Counted from the stretch's first letter, positions 3,516 through 12,846 are shown. The stretch: 64,000 nt of DNA from Gammaproteobacteria bacterium (GCA_041576975.1 JBFGJY010000002.1:32187-96186); one strand, 5' to 3'. Numbers and translations are program-made. The notes: generated by a model from the sequence alone, not told the origin.

Positions 3516-4430
3516 TTAGCTTCTTTTTTCCTGTTTCGACCAAATCGCCGCTAATAAAGATCCTGATAGATTATGCCATATTGAAAAAACTGCACCAGGT
3601 AAAGCAGCAATAGGTTTGAAATATTCTGTGGCCAGTGCGACGGCTAAGCCAGAGTTTTGCATACCCACTTCAATTGCGATGGTTTTTCGTATTTTTTCAT
3701 TGTAGCCAAGCCAATAACTAAAAATATAGCCTATTACTAACCCCATTAAATTATGCAGAATAACTGCAATCATGACTATACTGACAATAGCATGAAGTTT
3801 TGGCTGATTGTTGGCAATAATTATAGCAATTATTATACATATGGCTAATACCGAGATACTAGGAAAAATGCGAATAATTAGTGCAAGTCGCTGACCAAAT
3901 GAATAATTAATTAATACTCCTAAACTCACAGGAAGCACAATAACTTTGAGCACTGTAGACATCATATTAAAGACAGGGACATCAATACTGTGGCCAAGGT
4001 AAATCCAAGTCAGTATAGGCGTGGCAACTACTGCTAATAATGTAGAGATACTTGTAAGCGCAATGGAAAGTGCGACATTACCGCGCGCTAAATAACAAAT
4101 TACATTAGATGCTGTACCTCCAGGACATGCACCTACAAGAACCATTCCTGTTAGCAACGGGATTGAAAGACTAAAAGACTTACTTATCAGCCATGCGACA
4201 AGAGGCATGATCGAATATTGTAAGATTAAACCAACAACAATGATTGATTTTAAATAAATAAGTTGGCTAAAGTCGGCAGGTTTGAGCGTTATTCCCATAC
4301 CCAGCATAACAATAGCTAATAGGTAAATGATGCTAGATTTCAATGAAATAAAAATTTGCGGAGCTAAATAAGCAATAATCGAAAGCAATACTGCCCATAA
4401 TGGGAATAAGAAATTAAAGCGTTCAAGCAT
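3516..4430 (-). CDS. Bile acid:sodium symporter (BASS/SBF) family transporter
   Basis: 304 aa with about 9-10 TM segments and SBF-like core repeats (GxxxGxxxP-rich helices). Confidence 0.7.
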   Translation of the reverse strand: MLERFNFLFPLWAVLLSIIAYLAPQIFISLKSSIIYLLAIVMLGMGITLKPADFSQLIYLKSIIVVGLILQYSIMPLVAWLISKSFSLSIPLLTGMVLVGACPGGTASNVICYLARGNVALSIALTSISTLLAVVATPILTWIYLGHSIDVPVFNMMSTVLKVIVLPVSLGVLINYSFGQRLALIIRIFPSISVLAICIIIAIIIANNQPKLHAIVSIVMIAVILHNLMGLVIGYIFSYWLGYNEKIRKTIAIEVGMQNSGLAVALATEYFKPIAALPGAVFSIWHNLSGSLLAAIWSKQEKRS

Positions 4431-4442
4431 GAAAAAAAGTAA

Positions 4443-4784
4443 TTAAATTAAAAGATAGATTTCATCATTTTTTATGACACATGGCAGTGCACGAAGGCTT
4501 TGTTTTTTACATGGACCGTAAACACATAGCCCATCTTCAATTTGAAATAGTGCGCCATGATTAGCACACATAATGTATTTATTGTCTTCGTCTAAAAAAC
4601 AATCGGGAGTCCAGTCTAAAGGCCCTAATGTATGTGGGCATGAATTTTCATAGATAAAAATTTGTTTATCTTTTTTGATAACAAAAAGGTTTAATTGTGT
4701 GTCGTTAATAGTGATAATCAGTCCTCTACTTCCAGGATCTTGTAATTCATCATAATTAAATAATTTTTTATGTATCGTGCTCAT
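4443..4784 (-). CDS. Rieske [2Fe-2S] domain protein
   Basis: 113 aa carrying the CPH...(16)...CANHGALF Rieske cluster-binding boxes. Confidence 0.75.
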   Translation of the reverse strand: MSTIHKKLFNYDELQDPGSRGLIITINDTQLNLFVIKKDKQIFIYENSCPHTLGPLDWTPDCFLDEDNKYIMCANHGALFQIEDGLCVYGPCKKQSLRALPCVIKNDEIYLLI

Positions 4785-4845
4785 AGTGTCTATATTACTT
4801 AAATGTACTTTATGTAATTAACTCCATAAAACGTACCATCCTACT

Positions 4846-5286
4846 ATGCAAAATTCTAATTGCTACTCCACATCTGAACAGGCTGAAGAGGCATTTTACT
4901 TAGCATTTCAACAAGGGGACATTGAAATGATGATGTCTGTTTGGTCAATTGATAAAGATACAACCTGTGTCCACCCAGGAGGACCTCGACTAGAAGGCAG
5001 GAAAGATATTCGTGAAAGTTGGGAGCAAATTTTTGCTCATGAGCGCGGTATTAAGTTTGAAATTAACCACAAAAGAGTTCTGGTAGAAAATGACATCGCA
5101 ATTCATCATGTAATTGAGGCTATTTCTGTGAATAACGAATTACAGTCCGAGATAGTTGCTACTAACGTCTATTGCAAGACTAAAAATGGTTGGCATATGA
5201 TTCTACATCATGCATCACCGGAACTACTTTCTAGTATCAATCAACCATATTTTGAAGATACAGATAACATACAGACTATACACTAG
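4846..5286 (+). CDS. SnoaL/NTF2-like (DUF4440-type) protein
   Basis: 146 aa with an NTF2-like fold pattern. Divergent from the Rieske/BASS genes. Confidence 0.55.
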   Translation: MQNSNCYSTSEQAEEAFYLAFQQGDIEMMMSVWSIDKDTTCVHPGGPRLEGRKDIRESWEQIFAHERGIKFEINHKRVLVENDIAIHHVIEAISVNNELQSEIVATNVYCKTKNGWHMILHHASPELLSSINQPYFEDTDNIQTIH

Positions 5287-5301: not shown

Positions 5302-6999
5302 TTAATCTAAATAATAAAAAATCAAATATGCACCAAGCAGGAAAGCGATCCACATCACCATGCTACCCGTTGGCCAAGTCTTTGATAGTATACCTTGTGG
5401 ACCATGATGTTGATGTAGACGTGATCCTGTAATAAACAAAACTTTTTTCAGAGCACTAAGTATATTTATTTCACCTGTTGCAATTAACATGGCGAACTGT
5501 TTTGCAAGATAAGCACCTGGTTTACGATAAAACCAATCAAAATCTAAATTCAGCGCAGGAATTTCCGCTGGATAGAGTTTGGCTCGATACAAAATTACAA
5601 ATGCTAATGCAGAAAACAACAGCAATTGTAATTGGGTTATTACATGTGTGTTTGTATAAGGAACAAACTCTACGGTGTAAGGTAATAGAGCATATAAAAA
5701 GTTAGGGTAAATACCAATAGCAATACACAGTGCGGCAGTAATGCCCATTGCTAACAACATGTTAAGCGGGGCTTCTCTACAACGTTTACCACTATCATGG
5801 GCAAAAAATGTGAAGAAAGGAATCTTAATACCCGAATGATCCAGCACACCAGCGGAAGCAAATAATAATATTAGCCAGATAAGCCAATGACCTTCAGCCG
5901 CAGTAGCGGTAAGTATCATCGACTTAGATACAAAACCACTAAATAATGGAAACGCGGAAATCGATAAGGAGCCTACAATACAAAATCCTGCCGTCCATGG
6001 CATGGATTTATATAAGCCACCAAGCTCTGATGCCTTAATTGTACCAACGCGATGTAAAACCGCCCCCATGCTCATGAATAGCAAAGCCTTATACAGAATA
6101 TGCGCGAAGGAATGTGCTGCAGTACCATTCAGTGCCAATTGAGTGCCCACACCTATCCCTACTACCATGAAACCAAGCTGATTATTTAAGCTATAGGACA
6201 ACACTCGACGCATGTCATTTTCGATAACTGCAAAAAAGATCGGGAAAGCTGTCATAATTGCGCCAATCCAGATCAGTATCTCGGTTCCCGCGTAACCACG
6301 GGCCAAGGCGTAGACAGCTAATTTCGTGGTATAGACCGATAAAGCTACTGTGCCAATCACACTGGCTTCAGGATATGCATCTTGTAGCCAGTTATGTAAT
6401 AGAGGGAAAGCACATTTAATTCCAAAGGCAATGAATATTAACCATCCGGCAAGCGTGTCTATCCCTAAATGATTAAAAACTAATGAACCTGTTTGCTGAA
6501 ATTGAATAATACTTCCGGCCAACAAAAATAAGCCCGAACTTACATGAATAATAAAATAACGCTGCCCGGCACGAATTGCGCGTTCTGTTTTGTTTGCCCA
6601 TATCAGCAAAGCGGATGAAATCGCAGTGATTTCCCAAAAGACAAATAACGTGATTAGATCGCCTGCCAGTACTGCACCACAGGCCGCTCCAGCATATATA
6701 AAGATACTAGAAAGTTGTAGTCGATCTTTTTCATGCCAGGCGTATAGTGCAACGATGAACAATGCGCATTGGAAAATTAGGGTAAATATAAAACTTAAAT
6801 CATCGAGCCTTAGCAAAGTAAGTTGATATGAAAAAACTTGCCAATGTCCATATTGGCCAGGCTCGATAGTCAGTAAGGCGCACACGCCCAGTAATGGTAT
6901 GATCAGGAGAAAGGCCTTGCGCAACGATGTTGGCAGGCAAGGCAATACCAGACCACCTAAAATCAATACGACAGCAGGATGCAATAGCATACTAATCAT
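5302..6999 (-). CDS. NuoL/MrpA N-terminal-like proton-translocating antiporter subunit (565 aa), lacking the MrpB-like C-terminal domain
   Basis: Multi-TM protein with Proton_antipo_M-type core (WEITAISSALL, GxxxF helices). Last gene of the Mrp-like operon. Confidence 0.8.
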   Translation of the reverse strand: MISMLLHPAVVLILGGLVLPCLPTSLRKAFLLIIPLLGVCALLTIEPGQYGHWQVFSYQLTLLRLDDLSFIFTLIFQCALFIVALYAWHEKDRLQLSSIFIYAGAACGAVLAGDLITLFVFWEITAISSALLIWANKTERAIRAGQRYFIIHVSSGLFLLAGSIIQFQQTGSLVFNHLGIDTLAGWLIFIAFGIKCAFPLLHNWLQDAYPEASVIGTVALSVYTTKLAVYALARGYAGTEILIWIGAIMTAFPIFFAVIENDMRRVLSYSLNNQLGFMVVGIGVGTQLALNGTAAHSFAHILYKALLFMSMGAVLHRVGTIKASELGGLYKSMPWTAGFCIVGSLSISAFPLFSGFVSKSMILTATAAEGHWLIWLILLFASAGVLDHSGIKIPFFTFFAHDSGKRCREAPLNMLLAMGITAALCIAIGIYPNFLYALLPYTVEFVPYTNTHVITQLQLLLFSALAFVILYRAKLYPAEIPALNLDFDWFYRKPGAYLAKQFAMLIATGEINILSALKKVLFITGSRLHQHHGPQGILSKTWPTGSMVMWIAFLLGAYLIFYYLD

Positions 7000-7243
7000 A
7001 GTAATTTTCTTGTCGTTTTATGATTTTGCGCAGTAGCTTTGCACTCATCACAATACTCATATAAGCAAGGAAGCCAAACCAAGCATAAAAACCAAACCAA
7101 TGCTCGAACTGGAAATAAGCATGTCTGTGATAAATAAAATCGAGCAGTAGTAAACCTACACAAGTCGCATATAAAACGTAGACAATTTTGTTAATGTTGC
7201 ATGGCTTATCTAGCCAATATTTTTTGTCTTTTTGTGGTGTCAT
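6992..7243 (-). CDS. Small 2-TM membrane protein within the Mrp-like operon (83 aa)
   Basis: Short hydrophobic ORF whose ends overlap both flanking antiporter-subunit genes by 4 nt, implying translational coupling. Confidence 0.5.
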   Translation of the reverse strand: MTPQKDKKYWLDKPCNINKIVYVLYATCVGLLLLDFIYHRHAYFQFEHWFGFYAWFGFLAYMSIVMSAKLLRKIIKRQENYYD

Positions 7244-8709
7244 GGATTAAATACCGGATACAGAAAATCATAAATAGGTTGCATATAAAAAAATAGCAGG
7301 AATGTGGCCAAAGCCGTAATACATAAAGGCATAACACATGCAATTGGGGCCTCTTGTATTCCTTTTGTTAAATTATCTGAGCGTGAGTCAAGTGGTTTAA
7401 AGAAAGCCCGCAAAGCAACCGGCAACAAATAAGCGCAATTAAGTAACGTACTTAGGGCGAAACCAAGTAGCACAATATAATTTTGTTTATTAAGACTTCC
7501 TTCAATTAAAAACCATTTGCTCCAGCTTCCAACTAAAGGCGGTAGTCCAATGACACTTAAGGTTGCAATTAAATAGGCTGTAAACGTAAACGGCATGCAG
7601 CGTCCTAATCCATTCAATTGACTAATTTGGGTAAACTTGGTTGCGGTATAGACCGCACCTGCACAAAAGAATAAGGTGATTTTTCCAACTGCGTGCGTGA
7701 AGATATGTATCGCACCGCCCAAAGCTGCAACTGGACTTGCCAATGCCGCACCAATAACAATGTAGGAAAGTTGACTGATCGTAGAATAGGCTAAACGGGC
7801 TTTGAAATTATCTTTTGTGAGGGCAATAACAGAGGCAGTGAGCATGGTTGCTACTGCGACCCATAAGATCCAATCTGCAGCATGTTGAGTCGCCATAAAA
7901 TCAATGCCAAAAATATAGACTGAAATCTTCAATACCGAAAATACACCTGCTTTGACCACAGCCACTGCATGTAGTAATGCACTAACTGGCGTAGGCGCGA
8001 CCATAGCAGCTGGCAACCAGCGGTGAAATGGCATCAGGGCAGCCTTGCCTAATCCGAACATATATAAGGTAAAAAGCAAAATGGCGCCAAAACGGTCCAA
8101 GTTGCCAATGAGAATTCCACCAGGTATGAAATTTAATGTACCTGCTTGAAACCAAGTAACCACTATAGCAGTTAGGAAAAATAATATGGATGTGCTGAGT
8201 AAGATGCCAAGATAGGTACGGCCTGCACTTTGGGCATCTGCAGTTTGCTTATGTGTAACCAGTGGAAATGTGCACAAAGTTAGCGACTCATAAAAGATAA
8301 ATAAGGTAATCAAGTTTGCTGCAAATGCGATGCCCATAGTGGATGCGATAGAAAAGGCGAAAAAAAGGTAAAATCGTGTTTGATTTTTTTCATTATTACC
8401 TCGCATATAGCCAATCGAATAAACCGTGGTAATAATCCAAAGGCTGGATGCGAGTAATGCAAACATAAGCCCCAGTGGTTCAATGTGAAAGGCTATGGAG
8501 AGACCTGGAGTGATGTTTAATAAAGTATGTGTTACAGATTCTTCATGGACAAATGTTAATAGTTGAGTGACATACAAAAACAAAATAACACCAAAAATTA
8601 TCGAACTCGCTTCTCGTAGCTGTGCATGATTATGAAATAGTAGAATTGGTAGCCCACCGAATAGAGGAATTAATACCGCAAGTTCATAATGCTGTAAGAA
8701 CTGAATCAT
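7240..8709 (-). CDS. MrpD/NuoN-like antiporter subunit, second paralogue (489 aa)
   Basis: Proton_antipo_M family. Overlaps the upstream gene by 4 nt. Confidence 0.8.
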   Translation of the reverse strand: MIQFLQHYELAVLIPLFGGLPILLFHNHAQLREASSIIFGVILFLYVTQLLTFVHEESVTHTLLNITPGLSIAFHIEPLGLMFALLASSLWIITTVYSIGYMRGNNEKNQTRFYLFFAFSIASTMGIAFAANLITLFIFYESLTLCTFPLVTHKQTADAQSAGRTYLGILLSTSILFFLTAIVVTWFQAGTLNFIPGGILIGNLDRFGAILLFTLYMFGLGKAALMPFHRWLPAAMVAPTPVSALLHAVAVVKAGVFSVLKISVYIFGIDFMATQHAADWILWVAVATMLTASVIALTKDNFKARLAYSTISQLSYIVIGAALASPVAALGGAIHIFTHAVGKITLFFCAGAVYTATKFTQISQLNGLGRCMPFTFTAYLIATLSVIGLPPLVGSWSKWFLIEGSLNKQNYIVLLGFALSTLLNCAYLLPVALRAFFKPLDSRSDNLTKGIQEAPIACVMPLCITALATFLLFFYMQPIYDFLYPVFNP

Positions 8710-8712
8710 TAT

Positions 8713-10197
8713 CTAGTGGAATAATGCATTGATAGCAGTATTTGCAAACCCAAAACTAAAAGAGGTTTCCAAACCAAAGTAAATGTTTGCGATGACCAAT
8801 ACCCAAAGTGGAATGAGCATTTGCAGGGGAGCTTCAAAAGTTACTTTTGTATCGTTATCAAAGCTATCTGCAGGACTTTTAAAGTAGGCGTATTCTACAA
8901 TTTTCCAGATGTAGACGATGGCGAGTAATGAACCGCCGACAATTATAATTGCGGCAAGCCAATGACTTTGTTCTATTGCGGCCGCTAATAAATACCATTT
9001 ACTAATGAATCCAGAGGTAAATGGAATACCTATAAGGCCAAGACCTAATAATACAATTGCAGCCATTGTCCATGGCATGCGTTTTCCTAGGCCGGCGAAA
9101 CTTTCCAATTGCACTGAGTGAATACGGAACACAATGCATGCCATCGCTAGAAACAATCCGCCTTTTATAATCGCGTGATTAAATAAATGCACCATGCCGG
9201 CAATGCTGCCACTTTTAGATGCAAGACCGATGCCTAATGTCATATAACCAATTTGTGCAACGCTTGAATAAGCAAACATACGTTTTATGTTGTCTTGAAA
9301 TATGGCAACAAAAGATGCTACGAAGATTGCAATTGCAGAAAGCGGTAATAGAATTTTTTCTAAATGAAAGTGTTGGAAAGAAATCTCATTTGAAAATAGT
9401 CCAAAAAAGAATCTAAATAACACATACAAGGAAACTTTTGTTGCTGTTGCAGATAGAAATACTGTTATCATCGATGGTGCATAAGCATAAGCATTGGGCA
9501 ACCAAAGATGTAATGGAAATAAAGCGAGTTTTAATGAAATCCCAACCGTGAAAAATGCAAATGCTGCATGTAATGCCCGTGAAGTAAGAAGCGCAGGTAT
9601 TTTTTGTTGTAGGTCAATAATATTTAATGTACCGGTTAGCATGTACAACAAGCCGACTCCTATTAATATGAAGGTAGCGCCAATAGTTCCCATGATTAAA
9701 TATTGATATGATGCAGTTAATGCCTTGCGATCTCGTCCCATCGCAATTAACACATAGGACGACAGTGAGCTAATTTCTAAAAATACGAAAAGATTAAACG
9801 CGTCACCTGTAGCAACAATGCCTAACAAGCCAGTTAGACAAAGTAAATATGCTGAGTAAAATAAACTAATTTTTTCTGGTGCAATTTCTTGTTCTATACT
9901 TTTGCGTGCAGCTAACATCGTTATACTGGCGGTTGCAGAAACGATGACTAAGACGTAGGAACTTAAGTGATCTATGCGATATTCAATTCCCCAAGGAGGT
10001 GCCCAGCCTCCAAGTTCATAAGACAGTACTCCATGTAAAGAAACTTCGCGTATTAGTAATAATGAAATGAAAAAAGTGAAAATACTTATAAAGGTTGCCA
10101 ATAACCAAGCCAGGCTGGCGCGTGTGAGCAACGAACAAAATGGCGCAGCGATTAAAGGGATGATCACTTGCATTACGGGGAGATGGAGAATGAACAC
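8713..10197 (-). CDS. MrpD/NuoM-like antiporter subunit (494 aa)
   Basis: Proton_antipo_M family membrane protein. Confidence 0.8.
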   Translation of the reverse strand: MFILHLPVMQVIIPLIAAPFCSLLTRASLAWLLATFISIFTFFISLLLIREVSLHGVLSYELGGWAPPWGIEYRIDHLSSYVLVIVSATASITMLAARKSIEQEIAPEKISLFYSAYLLCLTGLLGIVATGDAFNLFVFLEISSLSSYVLIAMGRDRKALTASYQYLIMGTIGATFILIGVGLLYMLTGTLNIIDLQQKIPALLTSRALHAAFAFFTVGISLKLALFPLHLWLPNAYAYAPSMITVFLSATATKVSLYVLFRFFFGLFSNEISFQHFHLEKILLPLSAIAIFVASFVAIFQDNIKRMFAYSSVAQIGYMTLGIGLASKSGSIAGMVHLFNHAIIKGGLFLAMACIVFRIHSVQLESFAGLGKRMPWTMAAIVLLGLGLIGIPFTSGFISKWYLLAAAIEQSHWLAAIIIVGGSLLAIVYIWKIVEYAYFKSPADSFDNDTKVTFEAPLQMLIPLWVLVIANIYFGLETSFSFGFANTAINALFH

Positions 10198-10559
10198 TAA
10201 GTTTCGTCCTGTTCTTCATCCTGCATGTGAATAATATTTTCATCCACTGTGCCGTATGCTCGATGAATCCTTGCAACGATTGCAAGGCCTAATGCAGTCG
10301 TGGCAACTCCAACCACAATAGCTGTCAAAATCAATACATGCGGTAAAGGATTAGAATAAATAGTAAAAGTATCCGTTAATATAGGTGCGGTTCCGTCATC
10401 TATTTTGCTCATAGAAATAAAGAAGATAAATACTGAAGTTTGAAAAATCGCTAAACCAATAATTTTTTTAATTAGATTTGAATCTGAAATGACGATATAA
10501 AAACCGATCATCATCAATATGATTGCTACCCAGTAATTGTAATAATCTGCAATCATCAA
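10197..10559 (-). CDS. MrpC/NuoK-like subunit (120 aa)
   Basis: Three TM helices with a NuoK-like pattern and an acidic C-terminal tail. Confidence 0.75.
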   Translation of the reverse strand: MMIADYYNYWVAIILMMIGFYIVISDSNLIKKIIGLAIFQTSVFIFFISMSKIDDGTAPILTDTFTIYSNPLPHVLILTAIVVGVATTALGLAIVARIHRAYGTVDENIIHMQDEEQDET

Positions 10560-10976
10560 TTACTCGGTGAATTCATCCAGCGTATAAAAAATCATGATCA
10601 TAACCGCGGCTACTGTAATGCCCACCCCCAACTCTATAAGGAAAATGCCAAGATGTTGTGCATGTTGATTTGTGTGTAGAAACACATTGTAGTCAAGGTA
10701 GTTTCCGCCCATTAGCATGGCAGCAACACCTACTCCCGCAAAAAGAAGCAAACCCAATGCAACGAATATGCGGATGACTGTCGATGGGAAAATTTGTTGA
10801 GCCTTGTCTCTACCGTATACTAATGCATAGAGTATTACTGCAGCTGCAAAGATTACCCCTGCTTGAAAACCTCCCCCTGGGCCGTAATCACCATGAAATT
10901 GTACATACAAGGCAAATAGCAGCACTGCAGGGATAATGAGCTTGCAAACCTCACGTAAAATCAAACTTCTTTTCAC
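10560..10976 (-). CDS. MrpB-like subunit (138 aa)
   Basis: Carries the GPGGGFQAG motif typical of MrpB. Confidence 0.7.
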   Translation of the reverse strand: MKRSLILREVCKLIIPAVLLFALYVQFHGDYGPGGGFQAGVIFAAAVILYALVYGRDKAQQIFPSTVIRIFVALGLLLFAGVGVAAMLMGGNYLDYNVFLHTNQHAQHLGIFLIELGVGITVAAVMIMIFYTLDEFTE

Positions 10977-11530
10977 GTTCTTTTATTTTTTTGACTACTT
11001 TTATCTTTAGGTTTGCCAATGAGTAATAACACACCTATTGCCGCGGTAAAGACGACGGTAACTTCGCCTAAGGTGTCGTAGCCACGATAGCTAGCTAACA
11101 CCGAGGTTACAACATTCGGGATACCAATTTCCTCACCGCTTTGCTTTAAGTAACGTGGTGCAACATGTGCATGGATAGGCGCGTCGGGATCGCCAAATAG
11201 TGGCATATCTAAAGTGCCATAAATTAATGCTGTTGCAGTGATGGATATGACGAGCAAGGGTAACAACTTGCCATGTCGACTTACACTTTGCTCTCTACCC
11301 GTGATTGCAATAGCACCAAGTAGTAGCACGGTTGTTAAGCCTGCACCTACAGCTGCCTCAGTAAAGGCAACATCTACAGCATCTAGGCTTACAAATAAGC
11401 CAGCTGATAATAAGCTATAAATCCCACTTAGCATTACTACTGCTAACAAGTTTTGTAGGCGCATCAATATGATTGCAGTAAGTGCTAATAATGTCAGTAA
11501 TGATATGTTGACGATAGTTTCTATATCCAT
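10973..11530 (-). CDS. MrpA C-terminal-like subunit (DUF4040 + MnhB domain, 185 aa)
   Basis: SVLASYRGYDTLGE, the signature of the MnhB domain. Confidence 0.7.
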   Translation of the reverse strand: MDIETIVNISLLTLLALTAIILMRLQNLLAVVMLSGIYSLLSAGLFVSLDAVDVAFTEAAVGAGLTTVLLLGAIAITGREQSVSRHGKLLPLLVISITATALIYGTLDMPLFGDPDAPIHAHVAPRYLKQSGEEIGIPNVVTSVLASYRGYDTLGEVTVVFTAAIGVLLLIGKPKDKSSQKNKRT

Positions 11531-11549
11531 AGGGCTGTAACCATCGTTG

Positions 11550-11852
11550 CTATTGATCAGTGTAATTTGAGCTTGTTATTTTTTCAGTGATTTTTGCCGC
11601 TCTAGCCAATGCATGTACTGCAGTTGGACCCGTTATCATCATAAAGAGCAAAATTAATAACAGTTTTATGATTACTAAAATTTCCTGAGTTTGTGTAATA
11701 AGGCCTAATAATATTAGGATCGCACCTAGGCTATCGATAATGCTTGCAGCGTGCACTCTAGAAAAAAATTCTGGCAAGCGCATTAAACCGAATGCACCGA
11801 CTAAACAAAAAGCGCTTCCAAACAGTAGCAGAATCCAGCCAATTATAATCAT
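11550..11852 (-). CDS. MrpG-like subunit (100 aa)
   Basis: GAFGLMRLPEFFSRVHAAS, the PhaG/MnhG signature. Confidence 0.7.
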   Translation of the reverse strand: MIIIGWILLLFGSAFCLVGAFGLMRLPEFFSRVHAASIIDSLGAILILLGLITQTQEILVIIKLLLILLFMMITGPTAVHALARAAKITEKITSSNYTDQ

Positions 11853-11861
11853 GTGTATACT

Positions 11862-12137
11862 TTAATCACGTTCATCTAAACTTTTGCCAAGACTGCCATA
11901 TCTAAATAGCTTTAATACTGCAATCGTCGAAATAAAATTTATCAGTACATATAGCAGGGCAATATCCATAAAGTCAGGGCGACTAGTTAAAAACCCAAAT
12001 AAAGCGATTAATAATACTGTTGCAGTCCCAAAAGTATTTATTGCCAGTATTCGATCAAATAGTGTTGGCCCGAGTGCAGCGCGTAGTAACAGAAAAAACA
12101 TTACTACTAAGATTGCAATGGTAGCGGCTATAAACAT
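11862..12137 (-). CDS. MrpF-like subunit (91 aa)
   Basis: ALGPTLFDRILA, an MrpF/PhaF motif. Confidence 0.7.
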   Translation of the reverse strand: MFIAATIAILVVMFFLLLRAALGPTLFDRILAINTFGTATVLLIALFGFLTSRPDFMDIALLYVLINFISTIAVLKLFRYGSLGKSLDERD

Positions 12138-12146
12138 CGAGTTATA

Positions 12147-12647
12147 TTAATCAATATTCGCTGGTTTTGTGGACTTGACTTCAAGGGCTAAAATTCGCTT
12201 ACTCATATCACCTTGTTGCAAATTATCTGCCAATTCTTTGGTAAGCGAGTGCACTTCAATAACATCAGTGTCTATATTCAAGCTATATGTACCAGGCGTT
12301 AAAGTGATGCAGTTTGCGTATACGGATTTACCCACATCACTATGCTGAGTAATGGGTACGGTGCTGATGTTTGGATCGATTGGTAATTTAGGTTGTAAAA
12401 TTCGCCAACTTACGTCAAGATTGGATTTAACTACTTCAATAAAAAACCAAGGCAAGAATCTTGGTAAATTGAGACTAAAGCGTAAGGTATGAGACTCAGG
12501 GTCAAGCAGAGCAAGCTTATGCGATAACCAAGCAACAAATAGACAACTTATTATTCCTAGGCAGAGCAACAAGCTGTCTAAATGGCCGGATAACAATAAC
12601 CAAGTGACAAATAATAGGAATGTTGTTATTAGTGCACGAATCAGCAT
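12147..12647 (-). CDS. MrpE-like subunit (166 aa), first gene of the operon
   Basis: ITLTPGT motif of MnhE. An AT-rich 200-bp putative promoter region lies upstream (12648-12846). Confidence 0.7.
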   Translation of the reverse strand: MLIRALITTFLLFVTWLLLSGHLDSLLLCLGIISCLFVAWLSHKLALLDPESHTLRFSLNLPRFLPWFFIEVVKSNLDVSWRILQPKLPIDPNISTVPITQHSDVGKSVYANCITLTPGTYSLNIDTDVIEVHSLTKELADNLQQGDMSKRILALEVKSTKPANID

Positions 12648-12846
12648 TGTTGGGCTGTCAGCTCGTCAGCAATTGGCGGCTAAAAATACTTAAGACTGAG
12701 ATATTATTCAAGCTGATAATACACACGTCAATATTGTTAATGTCATTATATTAACTCTATATATAAATATATTTATTGAGCTTGAATTGTTATTGAAATA
12801 TGTCAACTATACGTCATATTTAATTAAATCATTGCCTAAGGCAAAC

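Follow-up and report, generated by a model that had tools for sequence, protein, structure and literature searches.

A Group 3 Mrp-type operon with three antiporter-like subunits and a conserved 83-amino-acid membrane protein in a gammaproteobacterial genome

A 64-kb stretch of gammaproteobacterial DNA (GCA_041576975.1, JBFGJY010000002.1:32187-96186; 64,000 nucleotides, referred to as the window) contains ten consecutive minus-strand open reading frames (ORFs), spanning positions 12647 to 5302, that resemble the subunits of Mrp cation/proton antiporters. The membrane arms of complex I, of membrane-bound hydrogenase (MBH), and of related pumps are regarded as descending from Mrp. The locus raises the question of whether the ten genes encode an antiporter acting on its own or the membrane arm of a redox enzyme whose partners are encoded elsewhere, and of what an 83-amino-acid (aa) protein is doing among them. 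We consider it probable that the product is a cation/proton antiporter of the Group 3 Mrp type (CPA3) that works on its own, driven by the proton motive force and equipped with three proton channels. Gene content, gene order, homology, channel residues, the predicted fold of the largest subunit, conservation of the operon, and the lack of conserved partner genes are directly supported.

The ten genes, in the order E-F-G-Ac-B-C-D1-D2-x-D3, were assigned to families using the Pfam and NCBIfam profile libraries (Table 1). Pfam matches far exceeded the gathering scores in every gene but x, and the Mrp domain families are complete (A-core, A-C-terminal, B, C, D, E, F, and G). The scans confirm a preliminary description, made from the sequence alone, of a CPA3/Mrp module with an MBH-like gene order. 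The order, E-F-G-(MbhD/MbhE)-B-C-D, is that of MBH and of the related MBS complex (PMC8415708), and the limits given in the description, 5302-12647, coincide exactly with the ten ORFs. The proposed splitting of MrpA was also borne out: Ac and D3 are separate genes, and no MbhD, MbhE, or MnhB domain was found in D3 by Pfam, so the MrpB-like tail is absent. The 185-aa product, which had been called an MnhB-domain protein, is instead the MbhD+MbhE C-terminal domain of MrpA (NF009159). The junctions measure +9, +9, and +19 nucleotides (nt) at E/F, F/G, and G/Ac, −4 at Ac/B, 0 at B/C, −1 at C/D1, +3 at D1/D2, −4 at D2/x, and −8 at x/D3. The 4-nt overlaps that had been described therefore hold for Ac/B and D2/x, while the other junctions range from −8 to +19 nt; the ten genes nonetheless clearly form one compact operon.

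The proposal of three antiporter-like subunits was likewise upheld, as D1, D2, and D3 each have the full set of channel residues: E141/K223/K254/K400 in D1, E141/K222/H247,K253/K398 in D2, and E123/K195/K226/K359 in D3. The Glu of transmembrane helix (TM) 5, the Lys of TM7, the Lys or His of TM8, and the Lys of TM12 are each at least 95% conserved in all three subunits (72–81 sequences). Among solved structures, D1 matched MbsH best (233.6 bits), followed by MrpD (195), MbhH (192), and NuoN, and it is the MrpD/NuoN-type pump expected beside MrpC. The best solved matches of D2 were NuoL, MrpA, and NdhF at about 129 bits; the protein stops right after the 14-helix core and has no lateral helix. 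D3 is about equidistant from MrpA, MbsH, MrpD, and MbhH (about 105–110 bits). As judged by sequence comparison, D2 and not D3 is the subunit closest to the NuoL and MrpA cores.

D3 was modeled with AlphaFold2 using a 27-sequence alignment (predicted local distance difference test score, pLDDT, of 74). The model has a complete core followed by a helix at 450–472, a 39-residue helix at 494–532, and a terminal helix at 543–564, giving 16 transmembrane helices and a lateral helix; the hydrophobic moment peaks at 504–521. The top Foldseek matches of the model were MrpA, NdhF, and NuoL, aligned over about 590–650 columns, and M-, N-, and D-type chains aligned over only about 490 columns. Due to these helices and matches, D3 is the predicted bearer of TM15, the lateral helix, and the TM16 anchor. 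The earlier label of NuoL-like for this 565-aa protein is thus appropriate to its fold and its lateral and anchor helices, but by sequence it suits D2 better.

The cation path proposed for Mrp involves, in Anoxybacillus numbering, MrpF Asp35, MrpC His37/His40, and Glu706 and Asp792 of the MrpA C-terminal part, with MrpF D35 as the proposed Na+ entry point (PMC7419157). Ac aligns to residues 636–795 of Bacillus pseudofirmus MrpA and to MbhD and MbhE, and is equivalent to the NuoJ-like TM17–21 of MrpA. It keeps the equivalents of Glu706 and of the Asp792 region: E58, D152, and E156 are conserved in orthologues, and E58 corresponds to E706 of Anoxybacillus MrpA and to E69 of MbhD. D28/R29 and D58 of F and H34 of G are also kept. 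Two positions are altered. MrpF Asp35 is replaced by Asn34, where MbhB, MbsB, and the MrpF proteins of Anoxybacillus and B. pseudofirmus (all the solved F subunits in the alignments) carry Asp; this Asn recurs in 65 of 66 orthologues, and a haloarchaeal orthologue has it too. In MrpC, whose best solved match is MbsG, the two His positions are occupied by Thr41 and Phe44. The motif here is F-Q-T-S-V-F, compared with S-H-G-A-H in Bacillus-type Mrp, D-S-G-I-H in MBH, and E-T-G-V-N in MBS, so that Gln/Thr/Ser stand where Bacillus-type MrpC has two His, again including the haloarchaeal orthologue. F39-Q40 is 100% conserved in 71 orthologues, and Gln40 sits in TM2.

How widespread this arrangement is was determined by scanning for D3 relatives with two D3 peptide patterns, using one genome per species. 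Relatives were found in at least 587 species, and the best 80 loci of the scan, from Alpha-, Beta-, and Gammaproteobacteria and Gemmatimonadota, were compared for gene order. The order E-F-G-Ac-B-C-D1-D2-x-D3 occurs in nearly all of the 80 loci, wherever the contig is long enough, and E heads the operon in most of them. Among the matches listed, the carriers are largely metagenome-assembled genomes (MAGs) from marine or saline habitats; cultured carriers include Sinimarinibacterium flocculans DSM 104150, Thermohalobaculum xanthum M0105, and Spectribacter species. In about 9 of the 80 loci, Ac is roughly 300–330 aa long and a separate B is not called; NF009161 is a 336-position model to which Ac and then B match in successive parts, and these loci suggest an Ac-B fusion. 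A plasmid of the haloarchaeon Halomontanus rarus (NZ_CP119800.1, 2273-10623) carries E-F-G-DUF4040-MnhB-C-D-D-D without a separate x, and its subunits are one-to-one orthologues of the window proteins (27–56% identity). The haloarchaeal D2 has 582 aa; its tail consists of an acidic linker rich in His, followed by a single hydrophobic helix without homology to x.

The class is also already described. Group 3 Mrp systems are defined as lacking mrpA and often having several mrpD genes (Ito et al. 2017, PMC5703873; Haja et al. 2021, PMC8415708). The traits of this group are present here: MbhD, MbhE, and MnhB domains are missing from the largest subunit (565 aa), a separate gene encodes the C-terminal domain of MrpA, and there are three PF00361 proteins. 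Four subunits (Ac, B, C, and D3) are named by NCBIfam models above their cut-offs, and RefSeq labels relatives of these genes as Na+/H+ antiporter subunits. Candidatus Nitrospira alkalitolerans has two extra NuoM/NuoL-like (mrpA/D-like) genes after mrpD (PMC7784846). In Ehrlichia, dispersed genes annotated as F, G, DUF4040, B, C, and E together with three D-like genes, which resemble the present set by annotation alone, complemented a Na+-sensitive E. coli strain (PMC8395091). The preliminary description had set the arrangement apart from canonical bacterial mrpABCDEFG operons. Since the same order, its annotation, and the Group 3 description are already widespread, from the 80 loci, the 587 or more species with a D3 relative, and the haloarchaeal plasmid to NCBIfam and the literature (PMC5703873, PMC8415708, PMC7784846), an unusual status is not supported. 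With its three proton-channel subunits, the operon is a typical representative of a Group 3 Mrp class that is widespread, already has a name, and is annotated automatically; as an occurrence it brings nothing new.

Comparison with known systems places the operon more precisely. The mrpEFGBB'CD operon of Pyrococcus furiosus also lacks a full-length mrpA and has E-F-G, an MbhD+MbhE fusion, MnhB, C, and D without redox genes (PMC8415708); it has one antiporter-like subunit, whereas the present operon has three and the 83-aa x. Several mrpD-like genes are shared with Group 3 Mrp in general, and the mrpCD1D2EFGAB cluster of Aphanothece halophytica is a cyclic permutation of the gene order. The Group 1/2 Mrp complexes of Bacillus, Anoxybacillus, and Dietzia (PDB 6z16, 7qru, 7d3u) have the same seven subunit types, the channel residues, and the lateral and anchor helices, with Ac corresponding to MrpA TM17–21. 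They differ in that MrpA is here divided between D3 (or D2) and Ac, that one pump and x are added, that Asn takes the place of MrpF Asp35, and that Thr/Phe, next to an invariant Gln, take that of the MrpC His pair. The MBH and MBS complexes of Thermococcales (PDB 6cfw, 6u8y) have the same gene order in their membrane part, and F, C, Ac, and D1 each find their best match among solved structures in an Mbh or Mbs subunit; in contrast to MBH/MBS, the operon lacks an MbhM/NuoH-like subunit, MbhI, and a hydrogenase-like MbhJKLN module.

In the proposed antiporter, E, F, G, and B together with Ac and C would form the cation-translocating module, as in the solved Mrp and MBH structures. D1 would be the proton channel adjoining MrpC, D2 and D3 would be two further proton channels, D3 would provide the lateral-helix clamp, Ac would provide the NuoJ-like element, and x, with its two helices, would be an accessory subunit to the pair formed by D2 and D3. 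Cation export would then be driven by three proton channels instead of two. On the model in which the Na+ module is driven by the antiporter-like units (PMC7419157), more H+ would be spent per cation, and in seawater, where the pH gradient is low or inverted, Na+ could be extruded or the cytoplasm acidified. Either D3 would occupy the canonical MrpA position beside D1, with D2 and x distal, or D2 would lie between D1 and D3. That the products assemble into a single complex, which ions it exchanges, the direction of transport and its stoichiometry, how D2 and D3 are arranged in space, and what x does are all points that we infer. Functional precedents come from related systems: E. coli gains Na+/H+ antiport from the Group 3 cluster of Aphanothece, as summarised in a review (PMC5703873), and Na+ is the coupling ion of the stand-alone P. 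furiosus system (PMC8415708).

The gene of the 83-aa protein x lies between D2 and D3, sharing 4 nt with the former and 8 nt with the latter, and occupies this place in 79 of the 80 loci, the sole exception being a truncated contig. Its relatives form 32 close clusters, 1624 clusters at 50% identity in an exhaustive profile search, and 1983 clusters at 90% identity. Most of these clusters have no source name, and the named ones are called hypothetical protein except for three with an odd name from the Joint Genome Institute (JGI). The AlphaFold2 model of x is a helical hairpin (helices 14–39 and 46–82, pLDDT 69). Basic residues occur at both ends, suggesting from the sequence that both termini are cytoplasmic; the short loop contains a conserved His and Glu (K/R40, H41, E47), and the C-terminus is a near-invariant R-x-E-D-Y-Y-D. 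No match to x was found in Pfam or NCBIfam or by Foldseek with its AlphaFold2 model, and the only match of its profile in the PDB was a His-tag artefact (E 2.9), in agreement with the earlier statement that it has no obvious Mrp counterpart. We conclude that x is a genuine conserved gene.

Natural fusions of x to D2 or D3 were sought, and the longer members of its family (P0150, P0096, P0164, P0245, P0190, and P0262) bear unrelated extensions; long ORFs in loci of high G+C content are probably longest-ORF artefacts and not x fusions. The possibility that x is contained in the C-terminus of the 582-aa haloarchaeal D2 was also rejected (hhalign probability 0.2%). Among the JGI names, two x homologues (P0005 and P0007) are called 'purine-cytosine permease-like protein'. 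Because all other named clusters are called hypothetical, the permease name seems to have been transferred spuriously.

The D2-x-D3 triplet also occurs outside Mrp operons. A tblastn search of plasmids with D3 gave 108 records, mostly Sinorhizobium, Rhizobium, and Ensifer megaplasmids. On pSymA of S. meliloti (NZ_CP021819.1, 6490-19473), the second nuo operon consists of nuoJ, nuoK, an MrpD-family gene (487 aa), a hypothetical gene (84 aa), a gene for a "Na+/H+ antiporter subunit D" (586 aa), nuoM, nuoN, and nuoA-G. The 84-aa protein (WP_003526961.1) is homologous to x (hhalign probability 94.7%) and likewise terminates in REDYYD. The 487-aa protein is 46% identical to D2 and the 586-aa protein 48% identical to D3, in the same gene order. 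This operon was taken as the rhizobial "green complex I", in which two MrpD-like subunits stand in the place of NuoL; the cassette there is embedded in nuoJK...MNABCDEFG, while in the window an antiporter operon carries it after mrpD. The traits of the rhizobial cassette, namely a NuoL-like core without a lateral helix, a small membrane protein, and a divergent lateral-helix pump, are all present in our operon, and the nuo genes are absent. The same MrpD-like pair is present in Complex_I_3 of Candidatus Manganitrophaceae, and a bd-like oxidase cluster has been reported with two MrpD-like subunits (PMC9040806, PMC7415380). In the accessible papers on green complex I and MrpD-like pairs, the small protein is not mentioned.

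Two gammaproteobacterial MAGs (L016, 8206-11698, and L019) contain D2-x-D3 with no other Mrp gene within 8–10 kb. Since the triplet occurs in Mrp operons, in a nuo operon, and alone, it behaves as a transferable unit, and x belongs to this unit and not to Mrp as such. The tail following the conserved LD.DWFYRK motif has 72 residues in D3 and 96 in the rhizobial D3, i.e., 24 more, and that of the Manganitrophaceae protein is longer by a further 26 residues (PMC9040806). These steps correspond to one pump-width per added proximal pump, and the series fits both spatial orders of D2 and D3.

A near-invariant HHGPQG-x-L-x-(K/R)-TWPTGS sequence precedes the last helix in the C-terminal region of Mrp-type D3 proteins (window 5302-5700), and it is missing from the rhizobial complex-I-type D3. 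Because of this absence, the HHGPQG motif may serve for docking in the Mrp context specifically. The neighbors of the triplet in the two MAGs include genes for a voltage-gated-type ion channel, an MscS-like channel, and a TRAP transporter, and NifQ/ferredoxin genes.

These occurrences bear on whether the operon could be the membrane arm of a redox enzyme with partners encoded elsewhere, a possibility already raised in the preliminary description. The gene order does match that of the MBH and MBS membrane parts (PMC8415708), pSymA has D2-x-D3 homologues between nuoK and nuoM, MrpD-like pairs accompany a bd-like oxidase cluster (PMC9040806), and the two MAGs have the triplet within 8–10 kb of none of the remaining operon. 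However, no NuoH/MbhM, NuoB, NuoD, or other redox genes were found in the operon, its flanks, or the 64-kb window, and no homologues of NuoA, B, C, D, E, F, or J were found anywhere in the window. A flanking gene family conserved across the 80 loci was also sought and none was found, the best cluster being present in 14 of 80, on either side and either strand; the earlier statement that no catalytic genes are adjacent is therefore correct, both near this operon and across the loci. Moreover, the side of MbhH on which MBH places its redox module is occupied by the MrpA core in Mrp (PMC7419157), and here it would presumably be taken by D2 and D3. We regard the redox-arm explanation as very unlikely: partners elsewhere have little support for this operon, although D2-x-D3 does play such a role in the green complex I of rhizobia.

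A different explanation, which we consider unlikely but appreciably less so, retains the machine and changes its job: K+ or Ca2+ would be exchanged, or Na+ would enter and H+ leave for pH homeostasis in a habitat of high Na+. The Asn in place of the MrpF Asp and the Gln/Thr/Ser in place of the MrpC His pair, throughout the family including the haloarchaeal orthologue, would fit this, and there are precedents in the Ca2+/H+ antiport of Thermomicrobium Mrp, the link of Pha1 to K+ (PMC5703873), and the Na+ entry with H+ exit proposed for the stand-alone P. furiosus Mrp (PMC8415708). On the other hand, cation-path residues are kept in Ac (E58, D152, E156), F (D28/R29, D58), and G (H34), and among the matches listed the carriers are largely marine or saline MAGs, where Na+ extrusion is the expected need. 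Four points weigh against the stand-alone, proton-motive-force-driven antiporter as we propose it. Several segments of the D3 model are of low confidence, and no purified or whole-assayed example of the exact ten-gene type was found in the literature. D2-x-D3 is not intrinsically tied to an antiporter, because it occurs in a redox operon and alone in two MAGs. Lastly, its ion specificity or coupling may not be that of the Mrp systems studied so far, because the F Asp-to-Asn change and the replacement of the MrpC His pair by Gln/Thr/Ser extend across the family.

A further proposal is more tentative, and we consider it doubtful rather than probable. D2-x-D3 might be a portable, self-contained double-pump cassette, with the unannotated x as its obligatory third component, that attaches to a surface of MrpD or NuoM type in Mrp antiporters, in green complex I, and perhaps in further enzymes; the three-pump clade, with two neutralised cation-path positions, might in addition have a different coupling chemistry. 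Two mechanistic questions are touched here, the number of proton channels per cation and the exchange of modules between antiporters and redox enzymes. A three-gene unit of a NuoL-like core, a small two-helix protein, and a lateral-helix pump is common to a very common bacterial Mrp type and the rhizobial green complex I, and this Mrp clade departs from all solved Mrp/MBH structures at two proposed Na+-path positions. The shared cassette and the altered residues are concrete targets for structural and mutational work in cultured carriers. Based on sequence comparison and one model of moderate confidence, they may be worth specialist attention.

Table 1. Genes of the operon and a promoter-like site upstream of it, in window coordinates.
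Feature	Position	Strand	Description
E, MrpE-like	12647-12147	-	166 aa; first gene of the operon; Pfam PF01899 (MNHE), E 3.2e-32
F, MrpF-like	12137-11862	-	91 aa; Pfam PF04066 (MrpF_PhaF), E 5.3e-17
G, MrpG-like	11852-11550	-	100 aa; Pfam PF03334 (PhaG_MnhG_YufB), E 4.7e-25; TIGR01300, 85.3 bits (cut-off 63.1)
Ac, free-standing MrpA C-terminal domain	11530-10973	-	185 aa; Pfam MbhD+MbhE; NF009159 (DUF4040), 199.9 bits (cut-off 141)
B, MrpB-like	10976-10560	-	138 aa; Pfam PF04039 (MnhB), E 9.2e-30; NF009162, 179.7 bits (cut-off 120)
C, MrpC/NuoK-like	10559-10197	-	120 aa; Pfam PF00420 (Oxidored_q2); NF005624, 138.3 bits (cut-off 95)
D1, MrpD/MbhH/MbsH/NuoN-type antiporter-like subunit	10197-8713	-	494 aa; Proton_antipo_M
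D2, NuoL/MrpA-type 14-helix core	8709-7240	-	489 aa; Proton_antipo_N and Proton_antipo_M
x, two-helix membrane protein	7243-6992	-	83 aa; no Pfam or NCBIfam match
D3, divergent antiporter-like subunit	6999-5302	-	565 aa; Proton_antipo_M; NF009310, 706 bits (cut-off 564)
Promoter-like site	12703-12731	-	TTGACG-17-AATAAT, 10/12 consensus matches; within the 199-nt hemY-mrpE gap

Upstream, the operon is flanked by hemC-hemD-hemX-hemY and a LytTR two-component pair, and a terminator-like hairpin follows hemY at 12844-12832. In the promoter and terminator scan, site counts in the region were not above the shuffled expectation, so the promoter call is a consensus match only; Rfam matches and repeats in the region were nothing beyond chance. 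The longest ORF of MrpC opens with TTG, with ATG directly after it (10556-10559), and the public gene call has 119 aa. Because the TTG immediately precedes the ATG and the public call uses 119 aa, the true start is probably the ATG at 10556, giving a protein of that length.

Downstream lie a convergent SnoaL-like gene, a small Rieske protein gene, an SBF-family transporter gene, and recG. The first three occupy window 3516-5286, where the Rieske [2Fe-2S] protein has 113 aa and the transporter is of the bile acid:Na+ symporter type. The SnoaL-like and Rieske genes are kept downstream only in the 10 closest loci, so they seem to reflect lineage synteny and not to be part of the system.

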